Below, in pieces: positions 26,901 through 63,127 of a stretch of 64,000 nt of DNA. Origin of the DNA: Balanoglossus misakiensis (Eukaryota; Animalia; Hemichordata); assembly GCA_040954595.2 (NCBI GenBank), contig CM082596.2:3145039-3209038 (forward strand), read 5' to 3'. Numbering within the stretch: position 1 is the stretch's first letter; each line of letters opens with the position of its first letter. Under the pieces are notes generated by a model, which had not been told where the DNA came from, did not search any database, and was given only the letters and a program-made list of their open reading frames with translations. A program made the translations under genes and the position numbers.

Positions 26901-27036
26901 TCACCTATGATTCATACATACAACGTATCTAAAGGTCAAATTTCTCTTTTTTTCATACAGGACTTAGAGGCACATCAGGTCTTAATGTAATCTGAACCGA
27001 AGAAGAAGAAAAAAAGCTCATCCGAGAAGAGTCGCC

Positions 27037-29253
27037 ATGGAGACGAACACTGCCAATCAAGCGAGTAATAAGTCAACTGGGAGTAATGAGGAAATGAAGA
27101 TCTCTGTGGGACGTGAGGAATTGAAACAGACCGTGTGTCTGCTGGCCTGCAGTCTCGGCGAGAGTGAAGTCAACAAAAAAGATGAAGCCATACTTGACGC
27201 TATTCACAGACTTAATCGTATTATAACTCAGGGAGACAAAATGATTCAGTTTGCTTCACCGTCCCAGCCGGGGCCTTCACCTCAAGAGAGCGACGGGCCG
27301 AAGCCGGAGACCGACGTCCCAACGGACAGTCCGATGAGCGACATGACAGCCGACGAGTTGTCAGGGCAACTGCAGAATCCCGCCCGTCCTGGGGTCACTA
27401 TGGTAACCAAAAACGGAGAGATAATGGAGGAGATGCTTCTGGAATGCTATAATGGATCGGACGACACCGACTTGGAGGACTATTATGGGGTACAACCTGA
27501 GAGTCGGGAGAGTCTGACGGCGCAACAGAGCAAGCTGTCACACAGCATCAACTTGCCACCGACTATGAGTAACGGCATCGGATTGACAAGGGGAATGGTG
27601 AGCGGGATCATGCATCCCCTCAAGATGTCCAGCCTGTCACGGAGGAAACACGAGAGACAGACTTTCACGTGTTACAAGTGCAAGGAGAGGATTGTCTGCG
27701 TGACAAACTTTGAGAAGCACATGATGGAGGCTCACAACATCGGAAAGCCCTGGGAGTGTCGCTTCTGTCCCGGTAGGCGCTTCCACCGACTCATTCTGCT
27801 GGAGCACCACTACAACACCATGCACAAGAACAATGGGGAGGGGCGTCGCAAGTACACCCAGAGGCAGTTCATTTGCGACGTCTGCCACGAGGTCGTCACG
27901 TACGTGTCCAAGTTCGAGGCCCACATGCTGGAGAAGCACGGCGTACGGAAGCCGTGGAGGTGCGATCAGTGCGTGAACTACGCGGCCGCCACCTACCACC
28001 TCTACATGTGGCACGTCCAACAGTACCACCCGAACATCACCAAGCACCACCTGGAGATCAGCACCGTGGTGAACAACACCGTCAACATCAACAGTACTGG
28101 ACCTCAGAGCCTGGTCGCCGCCGCCCCCGTGCTGGTCCCGCAGCGTCCCACCCTCCCCGTCACCCTGCCGGCCAACCAGCCGCGCAGTGTCGAAAGTGAA
28201 GCCAAGAACACCGAAGAAGCCGTGATGAAGAGTGCAGACAACATGCCTGGCAGTGCATCGTTGGAAACAGTTTCCGGAGAAGAAAAGGGGTCAGAGATCA
28301 AAGATGCTAAAGTCGTGCTTGCGGAGCCAGTGCTGCTTGCAGCCTCAGTGGCTCAACCACAGGTTCCTCAGGATGAGGAAAAGAATGACGGCGAAGAAGA
28401 TGAAGAAGAAGACGAAGAAGATGAGGGTGAAGGCGAACTGATGATTGCTGAAGATAAAGAGATGGATTTTGCAGACCCAGAGAGACCAGATGATGAGATG
28501 CCCATGATGAAAACCGAGGCAACAGAGACTTCCATGCCACAGAGTCAGAGTCTTGAAAAGATTGAACTGAATGAATGCAGTCCGCAAAACCTGGTTGTCA
28601 AACGGGAACCCAACTGGGAGGATGAAGCCAGCGAGGACTCTGGTTGCCAGGGGGAGGAAAATAACCCCGGCGACGGGGCTAATGGCAACCACGCGGTGCC
28701 GAGAAGAAGCTCGGTGGAGCTGGAGATGGAGGACAGTCAAGACGAGAACCGGATGGCGTTCATGCCGAACTACCCGCGGAAGTACACCATACGGCGGTTC
28801 ATCTGTGAACTGTGCGGCGTGGAGATCCGACACACGGCCAAGTACGAGCGTCACATGTTCGAGATGCACAACGTCACCATGCCCTACAAGTGTAACAAGT
28901 GCTCAGGGAAACGCTTCATGAGGCTCATCCAGCTGCAGGTGCACGAGGACAAGATGCACAGCCACAAACCGGTGGAGACGCGCCGCAAGTGGACGCAGCG
29001 CCAGTTCCAGTGCCCCATCTGCCGCGAGAAGATCACCTACGTGGCCAAGTACCAGCAGCACATGATCCTGGAGCACGGCGTCATGCGCATGTTCGACTGT
29101 CGCGTCTGCGGCCACGCCATGGGACACTATCACCAGTACCAGGATCACATGAGAACATATCATCCCAACGCCAGCGTCCGTCACTACTCGGAGACAGAGT
29201 CGCTCACTAACAGCGGCAGTGCTACGGGTCAAAATAGCGACGATGGCACTTAA
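27037..29253 (+). CDS. C2H2 zinc-finger protein, 738 aa, 8 fingers in two clusters, single coding exon
   Basis: Long ORF with Kozak context gccATGG, downstream of the acceptor at 26960. Eight CxxC...HxxxxH motifs (e.g. FTCYKC...FEKHMMEAH, WECRFC...LEHHYNTMH, FICDVC...EAHMLEKH, FQCPIC...QQHMILEH) separated by an acidic low-complexity linker. Confidence 0.93.
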   Translation: METNTANQASNKSTGSNEEMKISVGREELKQTVCLLACSLGESEVNKKDEAILDAIHRLNRIITQGDKMIQFASPSQPGPSPQESDGPKPETDVPTDSPMSDMTADELSGQLQNPARPGVTMVTKNGEIMEEMLLECYNGSDDTDLEDYYGVQPESRESLTAQQSKLSHSINLPPTMSNGIGLTRGMVSGIMHPLKMSSLSRRKHERQTFTCYKCKERIVCVTNFEKHMMEAHNIGKPWECRFCPGRRFHRLILLEHHYNTMHKNNGEGRRKYTQRQFICDVCHEVVTYVSKFEAHMLEKHGVRKPWRCDQCVNYAAATYHLYMWHVQQYHPNITKHHLEISTVVNNTVNINSTGPQSLVAAAPVLVPQRPTLPVTLPANQPRSVESEAKNTEEAVMKSADNMPGSASLETVSGEEKGSEIKDAKVVLAEPVLLAASVAQPQVPQDEEKNDGEEDEEEDEEDEGEGELMIAEDKEMDFADPERPDDEMPMMKTEATETSMPQSQSLEKIELNECSPQNLVVKREPNWEDEASEDSGCQGEENNPGDGANGNHAVPRRSSVELEMEDSQDENRMAFMPNYPRKYTIRRFICELCGVEIRHTAKYERHMFEMHNVTMPYKCNKCSGKRFMRLIQLQVHEDKMHSHKPVETRRKWTQRQFQCPICREKITYVAKYQQHMILEHGVMRMFDCRVCGHAMGHYHQYQDHMRTYHPNASVRHYSETESLTNSGSATGQNSDDGT

Positions 29254-36118: not shown

Positions 36119-46023
<9,905 letters not shown>

Positions 46024-47716: not shown

Positions 47717-49652
47717 TTACTCCACAAATTCGTCAGGTTCATCGAAGTATAAATCATATCTCAAAGTCGATTGCAAAACTGGAGTCAGTTCAATCCCATG
47801 TCGGACTCCCAGTTGGGCTATTTTTCTTTTTATTTCTTCATTCGCCTTTGTGAGAATATCCAACATATGAAACCTGCCACACAATCTCTCCAGAGCCTGG
47901 ATAACTGTCCGCAAATAGCTAATTGAGCGCCCCCTAGAGCCAGTTTCACGTGGTAAGTGCGCATAGCCGAGGAGAAAATCAGCCTCGTTCGGGATGACGT
48001 CTATAGATGTCATCAGAGTTAGTAAGTCGTCATCTGCTGGTGTAACCGATGACGGTTCTCCGCGGGGCCCGTAATCGTCAATCGGACGTGTCTCTACCAG
48101 AAAGACCTTTGGTTTTCCGGCCAAATTTGTGGAATTCGCCTCGGCGAATATTTCCGTGAGATTCCGAAAACTGACGCCTACTCCATCCACGCCCATCAGT
48201 CGGCCAAAAGTTCCTTGGGAGAGGATGCATACGAGAAGGCAGTCGTGGAAAGAGTGGTCTTCGAGATTCAAGTTTCTCAACGAGCCGATCAGATCCAGCG
48301 ATGTTAAGTTTTTCATCACTCTGACGCTGAAGCCCATGCTGGAAAGTATACTGCGAATAATGCCTGAAATAAATGAAAACAATGTAATGTACAAAACACG
48401 AGTTACATCTGCCCCCTCTCCATCTACATCTCCACATGCGCATATTGAACAAAGTCTGCAAAAAGTCATGCTAAACGTATAATAGACTCGCAAAAATAAC
48501 GCGATTTCATACACAGAACACGCCTGCTTATTTAGAACATGTACATGAACTTTAATACACACTCAAACTGTGAGTACTTTAGGCCTTAGAGATGTACGTA
48601 GCCTGGGCCTCCGGGGATTGTGGAGTTAAAGGTCAATGACCTGACGTGACCTTACACCCCATAAACACCGTCACGTGATCACTTCTGCAGACATACACGT
48701 CCCTGCAAAGTTGCTTGTTTTCACATACAAGTCCGTGGTACTCACCTAATTCGGACCGGAAGACATCACCGCTAGACTTGGCATCAGATTCACTGTCATA
48801 TTCGTAATTATAGACTATCACAGCCGCGCCACACGGATGGCTGTCCATCGTATAGCACGGAACTTGGGAACCGGACTGCCATTCTCGCATCTCCATTCTC
48901 CCGTTCTTCGTCCGAGCTGAGTCGACCGTCCGTTCCAGTTTTTGGATCGCTGGAATCCCCTTCTGTATCGCGTCTTGATACTCCGTGATAAGCAAGTTCT
49001 CTTCGAAGTGGACATCTTTCAAGCCGCCCAAGTTACTGCACAGAGAAGCAGGTAAGATCCTCAAACGATTTTCTTCCACGCGAAGTTCTTCTAGCCCTTT
49101 CATTTCCCCCAGCGTGTACGGGAGCCAGTCCAACTTATTGTTGTTCAGCCACAATACCTTCAGGTTCTTCATTTTTCCAATTCCCCTCGGTAAACTGGTT
49201 AGTCCGTTGTTGCTCAGGAATAGCTTTTCCAGCCCTTGCATGTCGGTGCTCAGCAGGCTGTCGGGGAATTCTGTGAACTTGTTGTCTGATACGTCCAGGT
49301 AACGGAGTTTTGATAACCGACCTATCGAAGCTGGTAGCGTCTTCAGCCTATTGGTCCCCAAGTAAAGCCTCACCAGTTCCCCCAGTCCCGAAACGACGTC
49401 GGGAAATTCCTCAAAGTGATTGTTTTCCAAGAATAACCATCTCAGTTTGTCTAGTTTGGATACGTCACTGGGAAGTGATTTTAAGCGATTGACGTTCAAG
49501 TTCATCCACTGTAGTTCTGTCAGGGTGCACACCTGTAGTGGTAGGCTTGTGAGGTTACGGTAATTCAGATCCACGCGGAGATCGTACGCTTTTCCCCGGT
49601 AAGGGTTGATGTTCAGAGCCGTCAGTTCTCGCTCTATCTTAGCCTTGGTCAT
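47717..49652 (-). CDS. LRR-caspase fusion protein with a catalytically dead caspase-8-like domain, ~517 aa, 2 coding exons
   Basis: Exons 49652-48746 (donor G|GTGAGT) and 48363-47717 (acceptor atttcag) join in frame. The N-terminus has about 8-9 LxxLxLxxNxLxxLP repeats. The C-terminus has caspase motifs YTMDSHPCGAAVIVYN, MGFSVRVMKNLT, DCLLVCILSQG, LAGKPKVFLVETR, IPNEADFLLG and STLRYDLYF. A short upstream exon near 50010-50050 is possible. Confidence 0.9.
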
Positions 49653-50647: not shown

Positions 50648-52847
50648 TCATTTCCGCTTGAATCCTGAATGAGTGAGAGAAAATACCAAAAGTTTATATA
50701 ATTTTACTTTTGGTCACTACAGACAGGGTAAACTCGAGTTTTGATGACATGTTCATTGTTCTGTTTAATTATTTTAAAAAGAGATAAATGCTTAACTTAA
50801 ACAAAATTAATTTAACGCATTGTGTCTCGGACCCACCTCTGGCGGACGACGGCTGGAAGACGTACATTGCGTACAGGGTCATAAGGAAGTTGTCGTTCAT
50901 GTACGCCTGTATATGGTCCTTGTGGAGTGAAATTTGTTCTTCAGAGAGACAGATATCCTGGTTCATTAGGTCTTCCATCTTTCCCCACGCCTTGGGGAAA
51001 GTTTTCTCAGTGTAACTCGTGGGCCGCGGTTGGATGAGCGGCAAAACCCTGGCGTTTGAACTCAAAGTGATGCCAAGTTTTTCTGTAGGAAAATGAAGAT
51101 CATGAGATACTATAGATTTCTTGAAATTGTGCGCTAAGATGACACAAATTTACTGAAATGAAGATTTCCGGGTTTTCAGTCGTGATAACTGGTGAGCCGG
51201 CTTTTGTGCTGTTCGTATAAAAGCTCTTGGAAAAACATGGCCACCTATTTCACCCACAAAACTTCCGCCAACTTCTAGGCCAATAGACCAAAAATCGCCA
51301 ATCTCATGTGTTTCACTCTCGTATACCAATCCAATCTTAGAAACATGCCAACCCCCTACCCGTTTTCCCGGGTAAAAGTTTTTCCTCATAATTTGAGAAA
51401 CGTGTAGTATGATAACAATTATAATGTCAGTCTTTTTGACATCTGTCGAGCTAATCACTTTCGGTTATAAAATAACCAAAGTACACCCACCCAACTGCCG
51501 TGTCAAATGTATGCCTATCCTGTCCTCGTTATCGATCACCTTGGCAAAACAGTCCTCGCAGTGACAGAGGAGAATGACTCTGTCGAATTTTGGAAACCGG
51601 TTGAACCACAGCATCCGGGCTATTTTGACACAGTAAAGATTGAACATGTTGTCGACCCCGTAGCTTCTCAGCGTCTTGGCTTGGAGGGCGTCCTCCGCCG
51701 TATGCGACCCCGCCCCTTCGCAGAGTTGCAAGGTGGGGAACCCGTTGACGAAATACGTCTGGATGCTGGCGAGCTCGCTCTGTCTGCTGCTGTCTGCGGA
51801 AAATAAAGGCCTGGACACTTCCACGGTGAAGTGTCGATCCCACTGGATTACCCGGTTCGCCAGGAACGGGTTGCAGTGGAGATCTTCCTTCGCGTCACCT
51901 CTCTGTCCGATAACTAGGACGTTTGAGTCTCGCCCTGTCCGCAGCGTTCCCCACGGACTCGGTATCAGCGGCAATTTCATAAGATAGTCCTCAATACAGT
52001 CTACCTGGTCCGAGTTGAATTCTTCAAATACGGAAAATATCCGACGATCCTTGGCCAGTTTCAAGGCCCACTTATCTCCGAATTTCCACTGTTTTAGCCA
52101 AATGTCGGCGATGACCTTGTCTTTCATATGTCTGGATTTTCGGTCACCGTATATTACGATCAGTATTGAACCTGAAATATTAAATTTGTGGGTTAAAGGT
52201 CGTGTAGAGAGCAGTGGGAGACAGAGAACATTTTTATTTTAATTTTAATTTTAAGCAATCATCCTTCTATGACCACCAACTTAATATGCCCTGTCTTTGT
52301 CAGGCCCTTTGCACTTGCTTCGGGGAATGCAAAACAAGTTTTTCTGATTGCAGTAGGCAAATACGATAAATTACCAGAGCTCGATAGGTTTGGTATTTCC
52401 GTCATGGCGAGACAAGACGGAAGTAAAACGATGGATTTTCTTGTGGATGGGGCAAATGATTCGGCAGAAGTGTGACCAGACATTTTTTGTGTCTAATCTG
52501 CCTCTGGTTTGAATGACAGGGAGTATACCTTTTGGCTTGGTCGATGTCCGATGCAACATGTCTAGCTCCTGCCTGTGGTCGATACTTCTGTCACGTCTCT
52601 CGGGTCTCAGACAGACCCGGCTTTGCCTGGCGTCGATGACAACGACCGCTGTGGACGTGGCGTACCTGGCCAGCGTTGTTGCGCGCTGTTTCTCGTCCGC
52701 GGCTCGGAAGCTATCTACCGTTGTCATGCCGTTCAAGTTCTCGTTTCCTTCGACCACCGCTTCCAGCAAAGCTTTCACGTTTTCTTCGGCGGCTTTCTGG
52801 AAGGATTTCAGTTTCGCAAACACGAAAATTCGGTGTCTTTCCGCCAT
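50648..52847 (-). CDS. Uncharacterised protein, paralog A: TIR-like alpha/beta N-domain plus degenerate IFI44-like P-loop domain, ~420 aa, 4 exons
   Basis: Exons 52847-52529, 52171-51491, 51082-50837 and 50664-50648, with all phase-1 GT-AG introns at positions matching paralog B. It shares long motifs with B (VVVIDARQSRVCL, TSTKPKGSIL, LWFNRFPKFD, NARVLPL). The last exon (GFKRK*) is the least certain; read-through to 50769 is the alternative. Domain names are inference. Confidence 0.8.
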
Positions 52848-54037
52848 TCTTTGAGTGTGTACGTCTCTTCTACCCTCTAGCGTAGACCCTGGGTTTCTAC
52901 GTAGAACCCGGATCGTGTCACACACACACTCACTGTTCCAAGACGAACTGAAACCGTTTGCTTATTTTAGTCTGGTAACTAGTTGGACATTGAATTCCTG
53001 TCAAAGTTTACAGCACAAGCATATACGCATAAACGCTTTCTCTTGAAGAGCACATTAAATCATATATCGCCTTCTGTGACTTGTGTCATTAGAAAAAATT
53101 AATCAGGTACGTGCTGCCTCCCGTAACCATAGACATGACAGAATTAACATGCAGCTTTAGGCTGCCGGACAGATTCCAATAAATCATATGGAACAATAAT
53201 TGATCATTGGTTGATAACCATAACAGTTGTTTTTGGTATAGGCGCAAACAACGCCTTCTTATCTGCCAAGCGAAATAACTGCAAGGCACTTGAAACGCCG
53301 TTCATTTCTGTGTAACCATGCATGTATGTACATTTTCTGTAAGGAGAATCAGCTTTCTGTCAACGACACGATAAGAACATTTTATCATATTAATCATATA
53401 TTGACTCTTGCTGTAAATAATATTTTCGCAACCCGACCTTATTGATTGACATATTTCTATAGTAAACGTTCATTACGCTATCTGAAGGAAAACTTTCTTT
53501 CCGAGTCTACGAACTGCCTGTATGTCCGCCTGTAAAATAGAACCCCTATAGGGTGACATCTTCACCTCGGTTTACCGCATGAATAGGTTCAAGCCCCTGG
53601 GTCCATGCACACAATAAAGCAACCAGGTCAAAAAAGTAGTCGCTATACAGCTGACATATCTTTGCCCGTTAGAGAGAGCTATAGTTAATCGAAACATTAA
53701 AAACTTTGCTTTACAGTCAAGTAAAAAAGAAATACTTTGAAAATACACCTCGCTGAAACACCCCATGTCAGAAACCTATATCGGACCTTCTAGGTTACTT
53801 TAAAGATATCATATTTTTGACGTCACGAGATATTTTGGGCCAAGATACCAGTGGCAAATACAATTCCCGAGCATTTGGACTATGGACGATTACTGATAGT
53901 TTAACAATCACTGGGTAAATGTTGGCTGGAGTGGAACTTTGGTCGCATTAAGTGGCCTGCTTCTCGCACAAAAGGACTGTGTTTAGCTAAATATAACGTA
54001 TGGGTCAATTTTCCACTGCACCGCACCTTGATGATCG

Positions 54038-54047: not shown

Positions 54048-54121
54048 TTGTCTAATTCGAGGTGATTAGATCCTGTTCTATTCATGGTTAGACGCGGTTG
54101 CGGACTCGCGATATTTTAAAC

Positions 54122-56481
54122 ATGAGTCGTCACAGTGCTCCAGTGCTACCAGCGAAGATGAGCGAATCAGGGATATACGTGACGATGAGGGGGTTCCACG
54201 CAGCGGGTTCGGGACTGCCCATGTACGTGCGCTACGCCAGGGGCGACCCAGTTGCGATTCGCGTCGATTGCCACGAGGACGATACCATACACGACCTGGC
54301 CAAGAAGCTGATCCTCCGCTCGAAGGATTTCGGGCTGGACCTGGCCGGGATCAGGCTCAGGGAAGGCAACGTGGCCGTATACATACTCGGGAAAGACGGC
54401 GTCGTGCTCCCGGGGAGAGACAAGCTGTCGCCGAGGAAGCTTCTTAAAGAAGTACAAGAGTACGACTTGGAATTTGAAACAGGTGAGAATAGTGTTGTAT
54501 CATCATTACACGGACAGACACTTTATAAACATTTTACAGCAAAGCATTTCTGTGTTCAACATTTCACATATACTGGCCACTGACAAAAATCTGAGGGGGA
54601 GGGGCAAACATGACAAAACAAGTACAGTATGTCCGTTTATTCTTGTGCAAACTTTTCTGATACATACATACTGGTATGAACTGTAATTATTTCCGTGTGT
54701 GCGCACTGAAACCTATGCATCTCTTGCTGTTTACAGATTTATGCGATGTGGTCGTCACCCACGCCGAGACCAGCGCCGTCTTCCCGTGCATCAAGACAGA
54801 GACGTTCGGTGACCTGGCGCGGAAGATAGAGACCAGAATTGCGGCTTTCAACTTCCAGGAGACGTATTTGATTGAACTGAGGGGGCAGCTCAAGACGGGC
54901 AAGTTGAGAATTTCAGAATATTCCGCCGTTGGCCGCAAGAGTAAAGTGATCAGCCTGACAAGAAGGATCGGGGATGTGGGCGACAGGAAGTTTTCTTTCT
55001 TCGTAGAGCAACCGAAGAAAGCCATTACTTGTGGTAAGTTGGTCACCACCAGTTCGAATCAAAATGATCAGCCTGGATGCATTTGCGGGTGTCCAGAATG
55101 TAAAATAATGTCAACCCATTGAATTTCGGTCGGAAGATATTTATAGTGTCTTTATATAACTTGACAAAGGAAATACAAATAACTGAAAAAAAAATCTAAG
55201 TGAGGGGGCGAGTTAGTCTTGTTTCAACCGGTCACATAAGCCTTTAACCCCCTCCCCCAATAAATGACACGTCATTTACCGAAATTGCATTCTTTATTGC
55301 AGCTGATATCAAGGAAAACCTGTGTGGGCAAAACGTAGTTTTCTTTGGTCCCCCTGGCAACGGTAAATCATCGACGATAAACACATTTGCCAAGGTAAGC
55401 TACTAAGTATTTCCGCATATGATCTCAGAATTCGTCACCTTCGGTCGGACTTTTTAGCGACGCGTGGGGGCGCGCAACAGCAGACTCAGGGAAAACGTGA
55501 ATATGGTGTTGATATTGTATGGATCGTGTTGAAATACCATTATATGTTTATAATTGACGCCTTTGTCATATAGAAATATTCATATGGGAGATACTACATA
55601 CTGTATACTCTCGAGTCCATTAGCTGAAATTGGATAAATTCAATGCCTGTCTTGGCAGACTTTCCAGAAGTTGACGATATGTGAATTCTTCGAAATGTCA
55701 TGCCTCGTAATAATCCGATTTTTTGCCTTTCTGGCTTTGTTTTAGGCTTTAGGTGGAGTCTATCGCCCTCTGGCAAATACCTATCAATTACGCGGCCCTG
55801 GCACTAAAGTATTCAAACCGTACACATTCACAGTCGAGGAGAAATCGTTCTCTCTCTGCGACGTGCCCGGTGCGGCTTTCCAAACCAGTGACGATTATGA
55901 CCCCACCAAATTCATCCAAAGGATTCTCGACGGCAAACTGCCCGCCGAAAAGCCCCTGGACTACAAGCACAAGTTCTACAAGCGCGGTTTTGGAAAAGCC
56001 CATTGCATCGTGTACATCCACAAATGGGACGCAGAGTTGGACGAACTTCACAGGTTTTTAGTCGATGAGGCCGCTGTACGAGGTGAGATGTTTTAGGATA
56101 ATTTGGGGCTGTGTGGTTTTTATGCAAAACGCAAATTGAAATACGAAGACTTTTATCTAAGGATGAAAATGATTTCATGCCTCATCGTCTTTTTCCATAG
56201 GAAGCGGTATTCCAGTGGTTGTCATAGTGACTCATATCGACCTCGCCCCAGACGACCCCGACCTTATCGCCGAGAAATGCGATCAGCTGGCCGAGATCAT
56301 GGGTATTGACGTCGCAAATGTGTTCACCGTATCGAACTTTGACCACGAGGCATCACACGAAGACCAACTGAGGGATGCGCATGCTCTGCAGTTGCTCCAC
56401 AAGATCCTGGCGTCGGCGAAGTCTTTCTGTGACAGAGGAAAGGTCAAAGTGACCGCAAAGGTCAGAGCGGCCGATAAATGA
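54122..56481 (+). CDS. IFI44-like P-loop GTPase with two N-terminal ubiquitin-like domains, ~455 aa, 5 coding exons
   Basis: Exons 54122-54482, 54737-55033, 55303-55394, 55746-56082 and 56201-56481 join in frame. Motifs: G1 NVVFFGPPGNGKSSTINT, G2 GPGT, G3 LCDVPG, ILDGKLP, HCIVYI, G4 IPVVVIVTHID, and VFTVSNF...DAHALQLLHKIL, which together fit the IFI44/IFI44L pattern. AATAAA at 57024-57029. Confidence 0.85.
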
Positions 56482-58071: not shown

Positions 58072-58779
58072 TCATTTCCCGCTGAGGTACTGCTTTATCG
58101 CGGCCGCTCCGTTCCTACACACATCCATCGGGGGGTTCTCCATCGGGTTGCCGTCCACCATGATCTTCTTCAGCTTGGGGAGTTTCGTTATGGCGCTCGG
58201 CAGCTCGGAGATGTTGTTGTCCTGCGCCCAGATCTCTTCCAGTTGCGGCATGCTGGCGATGCAGTCGGGAAGGGCCGTCAGCTGGTTGTCGTTCACGACC
58301 AAGACCTTGAGGCACCGCAGGCTGGCGAGGTTCTCCGGCAGCTCCGTGAGTTTGTTGTGGCGCATGTAAAGCTCCTCGATTTCGGAGCCGCTCAGCGCCT
58401 CCGGGAATTCCTCGAATTCGTTGCTGTCCAGCCAGAGCTCACGGAGGTTCAGCAAACGGGAGATGTTCCGCGGCAGTGACCTCAGCCGGTTTCCCCGCAG
58501 GTCCAACACCCTCAGCTCGCGCAACTCACAGACGACTTCTGGTATCTCCTCCAGACCGTTCTCGCTGAACGTGAGGCTCTCCAGCCGCTTGAGATGCACG
58601 ACATCATTCGGCACGTCCACAATGTTGTTTCCCTTTAAACTGAGGCCCATTAAATTCCTCTGTCCGTAGACTGCCTTCGGGATGACTGTGAGCCGCGAGT
58701 TGTCCAGGTCGACACACACGCCGAGGTCTCCCTGGTTGTTGATGAACGGCTCAAAGAACAGCTTGTGTCCATCAGACAT
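58072..58779 (-). CDS. Stand-alone intracellular leucine-rich-repeat protein, 235 aa, intronless CDS
   Basis: ORF with about 8 LRRs (e.g. LRVLDLRGNRLRSLP, LRELWLDSNEFEEFP, LKVLVVNDNQLTALP) and C-cap GNPMENPPMDVCRNGAAAIKQYL. GC-rich codon usage; no signal peptide or TM segment is apparent. Confidence 0.92.
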   Translation of the reverse strand: MSDGHKLFFEPFINNQGDLGVCVDLDNSRLTVIPKAVYGQRNLMGLSLKGNNIVDVPNDVVHLKRLESLTFSENGLEEIPEVVCELRELRVLDLRGNRLRSLPRNISRLLNLRELWLDSNEFEEFPEALSGSEIEELYMRHNKLTELPENLASLRCLKVLVVNDNQLTALPDCIASMPQLEEIWAQDNNISELPSAITKLPKLKKIMVDGNPMENPPMDVCRNGAAAIKQYLSGK

Positions 58780-59170: not shown

Positions 59171-61002
59171 GCAGTCTCACAAACGTCTAAATGCTGCACA
59201 CAAATTCGGTTTCAACCCCAGCGCTTGAACTTTGCGACACAGACAGATAATATCAGGCAGAGTCCGACACTGCTGACACATTTATGGGATTGATGATGTG
59301 TAACACGCGGAGGCCTCGCAAACTGACCCCAACCCGATCAGAGTTATGTTAATATGTCAGCCAACAAACGCTAAACCGTTAATTCAATGACCTCCTAATG
59401 GATGACCGAGCACGTATACGTGTTAATGGTCCAATGGAATTGTAGGAAATGAAATTTGTAAATGTGGTCCGTTCTGACAAAATTGACGGCTGTGATTCTA
59501 ATATTTCGAGAAGTTCATGGTGCCATTTTAATCATTTCCCCATCAAATCGAAAATAAACATACTCGATGTGAAAGGGACTCAAATGATACGGGCACGAAC
59601 GTATTACATGTACACCTTCTATGAAACCGCGATTTTCCAATTATTAAATGTTTGAAAACGACAGTGTAATCTCACTAATGAATATTTTAGTAAGTATTCG
59701 TGCATGTACTTATACCGGCCTCAGTATTACTCTATTACACTACTTACTAGACCTGATGGTATCTCGACAGGTATGGTTACACGCTCCTGCGCGGGGAACA
59801 TGCGCATTGTATGATGTCAGAAAGCCACAACATATTATGGAGTCGTTTACATGTTTCCATAGAAACGTACAGCAAATTAATGATGGAAGATGTAGGAGCA
59901 AAGTGAGTATTTCTTTTACGACACATTAATTTAGTTTTATGACATGAGTAATCTCATTCGGAACCAAGTCGTTTTTCTGCGGATATTTTTAATTTTTATA
60001 TCCCATGGCATGACGAAAAATTCTTACGAGATTCACGAGCTTTTCCGCTTAGTTTTTATATCAGTGCAGGACGTTATTATATATTAGCTGGAATATGTAG
60101 CCAAAACATCTGTACCACCAGAATGCGGAAACTTGTAAATTGTGGATAGTCGTCCATCGATGTGAATTGAATTGTGATTGCAGTCGTTTCGCATATACCT
60201 GTACAACATAAATAAGCTGTCAGTAATACATGTAACGGCCTCGTTGATCCATGTATGTTCATGATGTTATACCTGTATCTTGCAGTAATTAGTTATTCAA
60301 TTATTCATGTGACGTAATAGTACTTACCTTCAATTGGTTGATCTTAATTATATGCAAACCACCTGGAAGTTTCATTTGACCAATGAACACAAGCTAATCT
60401 GGCACTATGATGTAGTTGCTGATATAAAAGGACATTGTGCATAAAATTGGTCAGTTCACCTCTGTAGCCAGACCGGCCACACACGTTGGAACTGACATGT
60501 ATTTGTTCCATTTCAGGTTAGTTTCCTTGTACCTTATTATCTGTTGCTTGAAGCTTTGTATTTTGGTGCATTCTACCGACTCATTTCAGCACAAGTAATT
60601 GGTGTCTTGAACTTGCGTCAATTTTCCAATTGTATTTCTGTATTTTTCACTTGCATGAATTTTGGTGTATTCTGTTGGAGGTGAACTCCCATACATGTGT
60701 GTAATTTAGCAGTTCACCTCTGTAGCCAGACCGGCATAACATACTGTATATGGCAATAACCTCAATAATGTTAGAAGTGAATGATGACACCACGATATGC
60801 AGTCTATTCCCTTCAATGCAAGTCTGATCTTTCTTCAATGTTTGTCGCTGATGGCGCCTCATGTGCCTGTGTACGCAGGGGTTGCATAGGGCCGTTTGTT
60901 GATAGACATGTTAACGATGGCCAATCTTCGGTCATCTCGGGACGATGACAATAGCGCCACCGTATAAACCACAGTTAACTTCTTACAAAGCCGGACTCCG
61001 AA

Positions 61003-63127
61003 ATGGGGGATGTGCAATGCGTACTTGTTTTCGCTAAGCTCGTTTCTTTTCAAAAAGCGGCAAAACGAGTTCGTTCTCTCCTCGAACAAGTGGTCGAGGA
61101 TGACGACCAACTGAACGGAAAGGTGATTGTCAAGAAATATAAAGGCGGAGACAAGTGGCCCACCGATGACTTCGCTACCACCACGGTCGTCGTCGTAATC
61201 GACGCCAGACAAAGTCGTGTTTGTCTCGTCCAATCGAGGCGAGACAGCAGTATTGACCACAGGGCAGAATTGGACATGCTTTATAAGACATCCACAAAAC
61301 CAAAAGGTAAATGTTTAAATACACAGATATTTTTATAGCAAAGTTTTCGATCTGCAGCTTTATTATCTGGCCAGATAGCCCAAACTTTTGATTGCGCGTG
61401 TGCTGCAATTTCTAAATTATTTTAAGTGCAGTGTTTGTATGTATTCGATCTCGAAGGGTGTTGCTATCAACGACCTTTGATTTTATGTCATCGCCCCTTT
61501 GCTTTTTCTGTTGTACTAGCAGCGTGCTTTTAGTATTAACTGTTGATTTTGAAAAATACAACACAGCTTTTTATTTTATTTTATTTTATTTTTATCAAAG
61601 GTTCAATTTTGGTTGTTATATACGGAGATAGCCAATCTGAAAATATGAGTGACGACAAGCTGGTCGCCGACAAGTGGATTCAAACTTGGAAATTCAATGA
61701 CAAAGTGGCGCAGACTCTCGTTCAGCGCAGTAGACTATTTTCCATATCGGACAATTTTAACGCAAAACAGGTGGCAGTCATTGTGGACTATTTGTACAAG
61801 TTACCACTGATTCCGATTCATGCCCCGGACTCCAACGTTCTGGTCATCGGAAAGAGAGACCCGCTGACGGAAGAAGCTGCAGAACTCCGCCGCGACCCGT
61901 TTCTCACCGATCACATCGTTCAGCACGAGCGTCAGTTTACCGTCCAGGAATCGAAGTACATCTCGCTCGTTCACGGACAATGTGACGACGCAAACGGCCA
62001 CCTGAGAACATACTTCGTCGACGACCTCGCAACGCCGAAGGTCTGCGATCTACCTGACGGACAAGAGATTAATTTGCTCACCACTAAAGACTTTAAGGAC
62101 TACGGAATTGATAACATGATGGATTTTCACATTGTCCAGGTGCCTCGTGTGCTCTGGTTCAACCGATTTCCAAAATTCGACCAAGTTCTACTGGTACCTC
62201 ACTGTGGCGTCTGTTTCTGTAGACTGACCGCGGAACAAGATCGCATTGGACAGCACCTCAAGTCAGCACTAAGTAGGTATAACAAACGTCCCGAATGTTG
62301 TAACTTTGAAAATTAAGAATGTTATTAGCCATAAACTTTTATCCACGATTAACCCGAAGATGACGAATTCTTAAAGGAAGCTCGTGCTTTTTTATAGCCG
62401 AGTACAGTACAAAAATAGGCCATAGGCTAAAGTAGACTTCTAAGTCGCCCTACTTATCAATGTTTATTGAAATAATTCATTCAGCTATTATCGTTAGCCA
62501 TTAGGCCATCACTAACACGATTGTCAATTTATTCTCAGGTAAACTTGGCATTCAGCTGAGCCCCAACGCCAGGGTGCTACCATTAATGACAACTGGCTGT
62601 CAAGAGCCCTCAGTCAGAACGAAGGCTTTGGCATTTGTAGACGACGCAATTGAAAAGGATGCAAATCTGACTGACGAGTCCAAAACCGCTCTCAAAAGAC
62701 AACTTGGGTGTTTTAGCGAGGACGACAGTTTTATCTGGGACTTGTATACGATGCATATGTACAACTTCCAGCCAGGTCAGTTGAATATTCATCGGCTTTC
62801 ATATACGAAACACTAGTTTTTTCAAACCCGACATGTCCGAATACGAGAGACTTGAACAAAGTACTCTGTACACGTCTGCATTGGTAGAAACCTTTAATCC
62901 TTGCAAAATTGTTAACATTTTTCTCTGACCAACTCTTTAAACTGCTGAGAAACGTCAACCGCAAAGTGTTTTTCATTATGAGACGCTGGTAATTTTGTCT
63001 TTCAGGACTAAAACCAAAAGAGCATCGACTGGACACTCAATCAGCCTCTACAGATCAAAAGGGACATGGACAGAGAAAAGAAGAATCAAATCTGCACAGT
63101 GAAGATTGTTCACTACCTATGGCATAG
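61003..63127 (+). CDS. Uncharacterised protein, paralog B: TIR-like alpha/beta N-domain plus degenerate IFI44-like P-loop domain, ~444 aa, 4 exons
   Basis: Exons 61003-61306, 61601-62272, 62539-62775 and 63006-63127, with phase-1 GT-AG introns and continuous frame. AATAAA at 63175-63180. Colinear with paralog A. Confidence 0.83.

Follow-up and report, generated by a model that had tools for sequence, protein, structure and literature searches.

What does a caspase fold do once it has lost its catalytic residues and carries an LRR domain where a death-fold prodomain would be expected? Most of what is known about pseudo-caspases comes from vertebrate cFLIP, and a gene of the hemichordate acorn worm Balanoglossus misakiensis raises this question outside the vertebrates. 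The gene lies in a stretch of 64,000 nucleotides, here called the window (assembly GCA_040954595.2, contig CM082596.2, positions 3,145,039 to 3,209,038 of the forward strand), in which all coordinates below are counted. It is on the minus strand and has two coding exons, 49652-48746 and 48363-47717, separated by a predicted phase 1 intron of 382 nt (GT..AG, 48364..48745) with canonical splice sites (GT donor at 48745-48744, AG acceptor at 48365-48364). The predicted 48746/48363 splice yields 1554 nt, that is 517 amino acids and a stop codon, without internal stops, so that the reading frame is intact, as an earlier, sequence-only reading of this DNA had stated. Exon 1 (48746..49652, residues 1-302), whose start agrees with that of the Ptychodera flava protein P0001, opens with the ATG and encodes the LRR domain (48978..49586; about nine LRRs, with eight repeats defined by motif and a further strand at the N-terminal end), a helical cap, a linker and the beginning of the caspase domain, with strand 1 of the fold and the degenerate Arg179 loop. 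Exon 2 (47717..48363, residues 303-517) encodes the remaining pseudo-caspase domain and the stop codon. Pfam scans assigned exon 1 to LRR families (E 2e-25) and exon 2 to Peptidase_C14 (E 2.5e-19; 70.3 bits versus a curated cutoff of 21.4), and found LRRs only, without a DED, in front of the caspase domain of the window protein and of 7 orthologs. The proposal of the sequence-only reading, a pseudo-caspase in which an LRR substitutes for the death-fold prodomain, is supported, and the protein is conserved.

The SHG and QACxG motifs of an active caspase are both replaced. Gln352 occupies the position of the catalytic His (codon CAA at 48215-48217, motif SQG), and ETRPI stands for QACxG (codons GAG ACA CGT CCG ATT at 48094-48080), with Arg395 (48086-48088) in the position of the catalytic Cys; both substitutions had been read correctly. 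The S1-pocket residues Arg179, Gln283 and Arg341 are represented by K292, E393 and R446, which sit in degenerate loops. The S1 arginines had been called unrecognizable and the motifs around them are indeed gone, but K292 and R446 (Arg446 at 47933..47935, in the Arg341 column, with altered loop length) still align with the two Arg columns. The best database matches of the caspase domain are caspase-8, in line with its earlier description as caspase-8-like; a caspase-8 ancestry is one of the two placements compatible with the trees described below.

The surroundings of the gene were also inspected. Tail-to-tail with it lies a gene of several exons, one of them long and Pro/Gln-rich, that encodes BRO1 and tyrosine-phosphatase domains (36846-46023, plus strand); we take it to be PTPN23/HD-PTP-like, and its region includes a long low-complexity tract of GAT/ATG-type repeats (37556-37971). 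A multi-exon P-loop GTPase gene (54121-56481, plus strand; Walker A near 55340-55370) is presumably IFI44-like, and one-by-one Pfam scans of three of its exons were negative. A single-exon LRR-only gene (58072-58779, minus strand) shares 35% identity with the LRR domain of the pseudo-caspase (212 residues) and falls near the LRRs of LRR-caspases in the LRR tree, with weak support. An unknown multi-exon gene occurs twice, in opposite orientations (50769-52961, minus strand, and 60979-62816, plus strand); the largest exons of the two copies are 42% identical over 234 residues, and no convincing Pfam match was obtained. Finally, a 755-codon open frame (26986-29253, plus strand) contains two C2H2-like zinc-finger clusters with a weak Pfam match.

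A sequence search over 1.84 billion representatives, of which we considered the best 150 of 1605 matches (20 of the 150 named), ranked at the top P0001, the LRR and caspase protein P0034 of Patiria miniata and the fragment P0035. A profile made from these three was used for the next search, in which 7995 candidates passed E<=1e-40. P0001 (XP_070570358.1, 515 amino acids) matches the window protein end to end, with 372 of 512 residues identical, and is colinear with it across the exon junction. Full-length fused orthologs were found in at least seven echinoderm species of four classes (Patiria, Acanthaster, Asterias, Apostichopus, Lytechinus, Anneissia and Antedon), covering sea stars, sea urchins, sea cucumbers and feather stars, and they are 36-40% identical to P0001 over 97-98% of its length. 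Among the matches listed, each species is represented by one 90%-identity cluster, with no sign of expansion; the Patiria cluster consists of two near-identical entries on separate contigs. Neither the best 150 of 1605 matches (20 of them named) nor the matches listed from the 7995 candidates at E<=1e-40 included a dead LRR-caspase from chordates, Saccoglossus or Glandiceps. The database labels on family members (Ras GEF-like, caspase-2-like, RGA4-like) are wrong. The catalytic Cys is absent from all 11 family sequences that have a caspase domain, being Arg in the window protein, Asn in P. flava and Leu in the other nine, and the residues at the His site are Q, Q, R, R, R, H, K, Y, T, K and H, so that the catalytic His is retained in only 2 of the 11. 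The sequence-only reading had pointed out that GAG, ACA and CGT are each a single first-position change away from CAG, GCA and TGT, which is literally true but says nothing about when activity was lost, because a single change per codon also separates them from the echinoderm QIL, and the Asn of P. flava is two changes from Cys. A recent inactivation through three single changes was therefore rejected, the codons fitting QIL equally well and the dead family being old.

Alternatively, the locus might be a pseudogene in decay, or two adjacent genes might have been joined by accident in splicing. In a protein-level neutral simulation, the window sequence was mutated until it differed by 140 residues, its distance from P. 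flava; none of the 2000 runs remained stop-free (0/2000), and the observed fraction of conservative changes (0.48) exceeded the simulated maximum (0.41). The open frame, the canonical splice sites, the colinear P. flava protein and the fused full-length orthologs in at least seven echinoderm species speak against decay and mis-splicing alike, which leaves this alternative hardly credible. We rejected the pseudogene on orthologs, open frame and simulation; decay, which the sequence-only reading had named as a possible refutation, is excluded by the orthologs and the simulation. Since sea stars, urchins, cucumbers and feather stars have kept the same dead protein, it is likely an old regulator of cell-death proteases and not a broken gene. 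A caspase fold with lost catalytic residues in a gene under constraint places the protein in the functional class of pseudo-caspases, with inactivity being predicted.

To place the family, 203 caspase domains were extracted from 195 proteins. A quick tree contained 132 rows, omitting near-duplicates, tandem-caspase models and short rows, and a careful maximum-likelihood tree was built from 52 hand-picked rows that do not include cFLIP. In the 52-row tree the ten dead sequences formed one clade (99/97), which splits into hemichordates and echinoderms, and then into crinoids and the remaining echinoderms. The LRR halves gave the same clade (99/98) in a 30-row tree. The agreement between the two trees indicates that the fusion of LRR and caspase is older than the hemichordate-echinoderm split, which dates to more than 500 million years ago, and the recovery of both domains as one clade argues for an old ambulacrarian pseudo-caspase, against a decaying pseudogene or a recent loss. 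Most simply, the loss of the Cys would also predate the split; two separate losses are conceivable, and the two phyla carry different residues. Long branches are present in the trees of the dead clade. Its nearest branches were active hemichordate LRR-caspases, with weak support in both the caspase tree (91/71) and the LRR tree (91/83), and a union of the dead clade with four caspase-8-like (DED) rows was not rejected (p-AU 0.247). We infer that the dead family arose by duplication of an active LRR-caspase before the hemichordate-echinoderm split, and its origin would be independent of that of cFLIP, a sequence that the trees do not contain.

Which surfaces the family has kept was analyzed in 9 full-length orthologs. 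The three substrate-groove loops contained no invariant position (0/19, 0/14 and 0/13), and neither did the intersubunit linker (0/30), which means that there is no conserved cleavage Asp. By contrast with these loops, 6 of 14 positions were invariant in the C-terminal strand (47744..47785), which we take from established caspase structure to be the dimer-interface strand, 7 of 12 in strand 5, and 15 of 36 in the segment of helix A, strand 2 and helix B, presumably the outer edge of the domain, away from the dimer interface, according to established caspase topology. Fifteen positions do not vary within the family although they do among 117 active caspase domains, and 10 of them fell in residues 302-337 (10/24 versus 5/71 elsewhere, the region having been picked post hoc). 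This family-specific patch (R306, S307, R317, M319, S324, L325, D326, I328, R332 and E337) maps to 48260..48355. In the LRR domain, the faces of which were assigned by motif register and not from coordinates, identity to echinoderm orthologs was found at 119 of 224 concave but at 97 of 448 convex positions, with lower values for the concave positions of active LRR-caspases (34/183) and unrelated LRRs (62/484); invariant positions numbered 10 of 32 on the concave and 1 of 64 on the convex face. From the sequences, this points to a fixed ligand of whatever nature on the concave face.

This pattern of unconstrained active-site loops beside a conserved dimer strand, outer surface and concave face argues against a decoy that absorbs pathogen caspase inhibitors, the other function that the sequence-only reading had offered and one that we consider very unlikely. 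According to the available part of PMC3597564, substrate-mimicking inhibitors dock on Arg179, Arg341, His237 and Trp340, which is the region left unconstrained in the dead family, and the conserved new surface has no counterpart among active caspases. The two hemichordate proteins do have basic residues at both S1 Arg columns (Lys292 and Arg446 in the window protein, Arg at both in P. flava), but both arginines have been lost in 7 of 7 echinoderms. A decoy could also draw on the predicted retention of the caspase fold and on inhibitors that bind outside the active site, of which XIAP BIR3 at the dimer interface is an example in the same excerpt (PMC3597564). The same pattern speaks against a fast-evolving pathogen sensor. 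A sensing switch, in which the LRR would bind a conserved microbial or damage ligand and open the protein so that the dead domain activates or releases a caspase, could accommodate the conserved concave face, which fits an invariant ligand, and the LRR-only gene, the P-loop GTPase and the duplicated unknown gene in the neighborhood. LRRs-caspase proteins were moreover proposed, as a proposal and not a test, to link recognition directly to apoptosis (PMC2575513, available in part). With concave residues that are conserved and not diversified, and a single 90%-identity cluster per species without expansion among the matches listed, we regard this switch as improbable.

The structure of P0001 was predicted by AlphaFold2 with 58 sequences (pLDDT 89.8, pTM 0.87). 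The model predicts an intact caspase fold and suggests that the two domains are held in a defined arrangement as one rigid unit; this unit rests on one model, since the ESM Atlas model had a pTM of 0.54 and an AlphaFold2 model with 6 sequences a pLDDT of 62.6 and a pTM of 0.46. When the LRR half and the caspase half of P0001 were modeled as a complex, without alignments, the scores were 0.03 and 0.00, which we count neither for nor against any reading. Of 48,161 PDB representatives, the best match to the caspase fold was c-FLIPL (3h13_A, Z 25.0, rmsd 2.1, 201 aligned residues), which lies within 1 Z of three active caspases (pro-Sf-caspase-1, caspase-8 and caspase-9, 24.6-24.1) and has the lowest rmsd of these tied matches. 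A shared fold is no proof of function. In a PDB search restricted to p10, cFLIP was absent from the 60 matches listed of 110. The closest LRR folds were Rsu1 and a flagellar protein, and also SHOC2. None of the PDB chains among the matches listed spanned both domains (highest query TM 0.42), and ESM Atlas gave structure matches to the LRR domain only (TM by query <0.5) and no usable feature match.

These data can be read as those of a scaffold that works away from active caspases, a homodimerizing dead platform whose concave face and outer patch would bind host proteins of other pathways, or each other. The clustering of 10 of the 15 family-specific positions in one segment, the conserved concave face, the protein-binding scaffolds among the nearest LRR folds (Rsu1 and SHOC2) and the predicted rigidity would all suit such a platform, which we consider possible, at appreciably less than an even chance. 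The two weaker models lend the rigid unit little backing, and the pseudo-caspases described in the accessible parts of PMC7586951, PMC11121540 and PMC3141678 act on active paralogs. The scaffold nevertheless comes a close second, because the distinctive conservation lies off the dimer strand and echinoderms have no active LRR-caspase among the matches listed.

The best explanation, which we hold tentatively and at slightly under an even chance, is a cFLIP-like dimerizing regulator, the half of the earlier proposal that survives where its decoy half does not. Through the dimer strand that it has kept, the dead domain would form a dimer with an active initiator caspase and tune that enzyme. The LRR would replace DED recruitment and likely set where or when this happens; its ligand would be a host protein that is itself conserved, or the outer patch of the same molecule. 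Both the dimerization and an active caspase as the partner are inferred. The architecture, the family-wide loss of the Cys, the single origin and the three conserved surfaces read from sequence argue for such a regulator, and so do precedents in the literature available to us in part: cFLIP acts as a heterodimer (PMC7586951), and an Aedes decoy enhances its own paralog (cited in PMC3141678). Several features sit less well with it. The conserved dimer strand fits a homodimer equally and also belongs to the core sheet, most of the family-specific conservation is on the outer face, where a pure heterodimer model does not explain it, the linker has no conserved Asp, and the sister link to active LRR-caspases is weak (91/71; 91/83). 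cFLIP is recruited by DEDs (PMC7586951, same excerpt), which the window protein does not have. Because the six active LRR-caspases among the matches listed are all hemichordate, echinoderms may need another partner. In its most specific form, which we think unlikely, the regulator would be a second, independent and older cFLIP-type switch, Ambulacraria-wide and ligand-gated, with the LRR clamping the protein's own outer surface and, once released, letting it pair with and retune an initiator caspase without a death fold.

By sequence comparison the dead LRR-caspase is real and old, while its mechanism is so far a proposal. Its presence in two phyla suggests that the caspase fold has a conserved task, so far unstudied, that needs no proteolysis, and that caspases can be controlled without recruitment through a death fold; sea star and sea urchin embryos are direct test systems. 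It also offers a way into the proposal of 2008 (PMC2575513, consulted text) that sensing and cell death are connected by LRR-caspases.

How does the family compare with known systems? The order of domains by itself is not new, which qualifies the novelty that the sequence-only reading had seen. Amphioxus LRRs-caspase proteins, compared here by description only, have the same order, with LRRs joined directly to the caspase domain, but according to the available text of Zhang et al. 2008 (PMC2575513) QACXG is intact in every one of them and activity is likely, whereas the window protein does not keep this motif. Six active LRR-caspases with LRR and Peptidase_C14 domains were found in hemichordates, P0046 and P0087 (Glandiceps), P0056, P0084 and P0167 (P. 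flava) and P0072 (Saccoglossus), and they keep SHG and QAC[QR] and differ in their concave LRR residues (34/183); all are database entries that are so far unstudied. Of these, P0056 and P0167, together with the related short caspase P0058, are on a contig of 44,037,996 bases, the same size as that of P0001; other caspase fusions outside the death fold were ankyrin-caspase and caspase-AIG1 GTPase proteins (P0063, P0081, P0134 and P0047). The dead family itself was not found described in echinoderms or hemichordates in a full-text literature that covers few subscription papers, and the accessible parts of PMC8195603 and PMC2246300 do not mention it; a 2006 survey of sea-urchin apoptosis genes may list the gene. 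The window gene encodes a protein that shares with cFLIP-L (CFLAR) the caspase fold, the replacement of both catalytic residues and the dimer strand. cFLIP-L has tandem DEDs where the dead LRR-caspase has LRRs, and it is a vertebrate protein, whereas the dead LRR-caspase belongs to Ambulacraria and has no conserved linker Asp. cFLIP conserves R315, Y360 and L413, as given with its other features in the available parts of PMC7586951 and PMC11121540, whereas the dead family is unfixed at its His (Q/R/H/K/Y/T) and Cys (R/N/L) sites; against this Arg/Tyr/Leu triad the window protein has Gln and Arg, and none of the 11 sequences has Tyr at the Cys site. Membership of cFLIP was therefore rejected, there being neither DEDs nor the conserved triad. 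The insect caspase-like decoys and caspase-12 are likewise dead or near-dead paralogs, thought to modulate active caspases (PMC11121540 and PMC3141678, in the parts available). They have no LRR. Their range is presumably narrower than that of the dead LRR-caspase, which spans two phyla.
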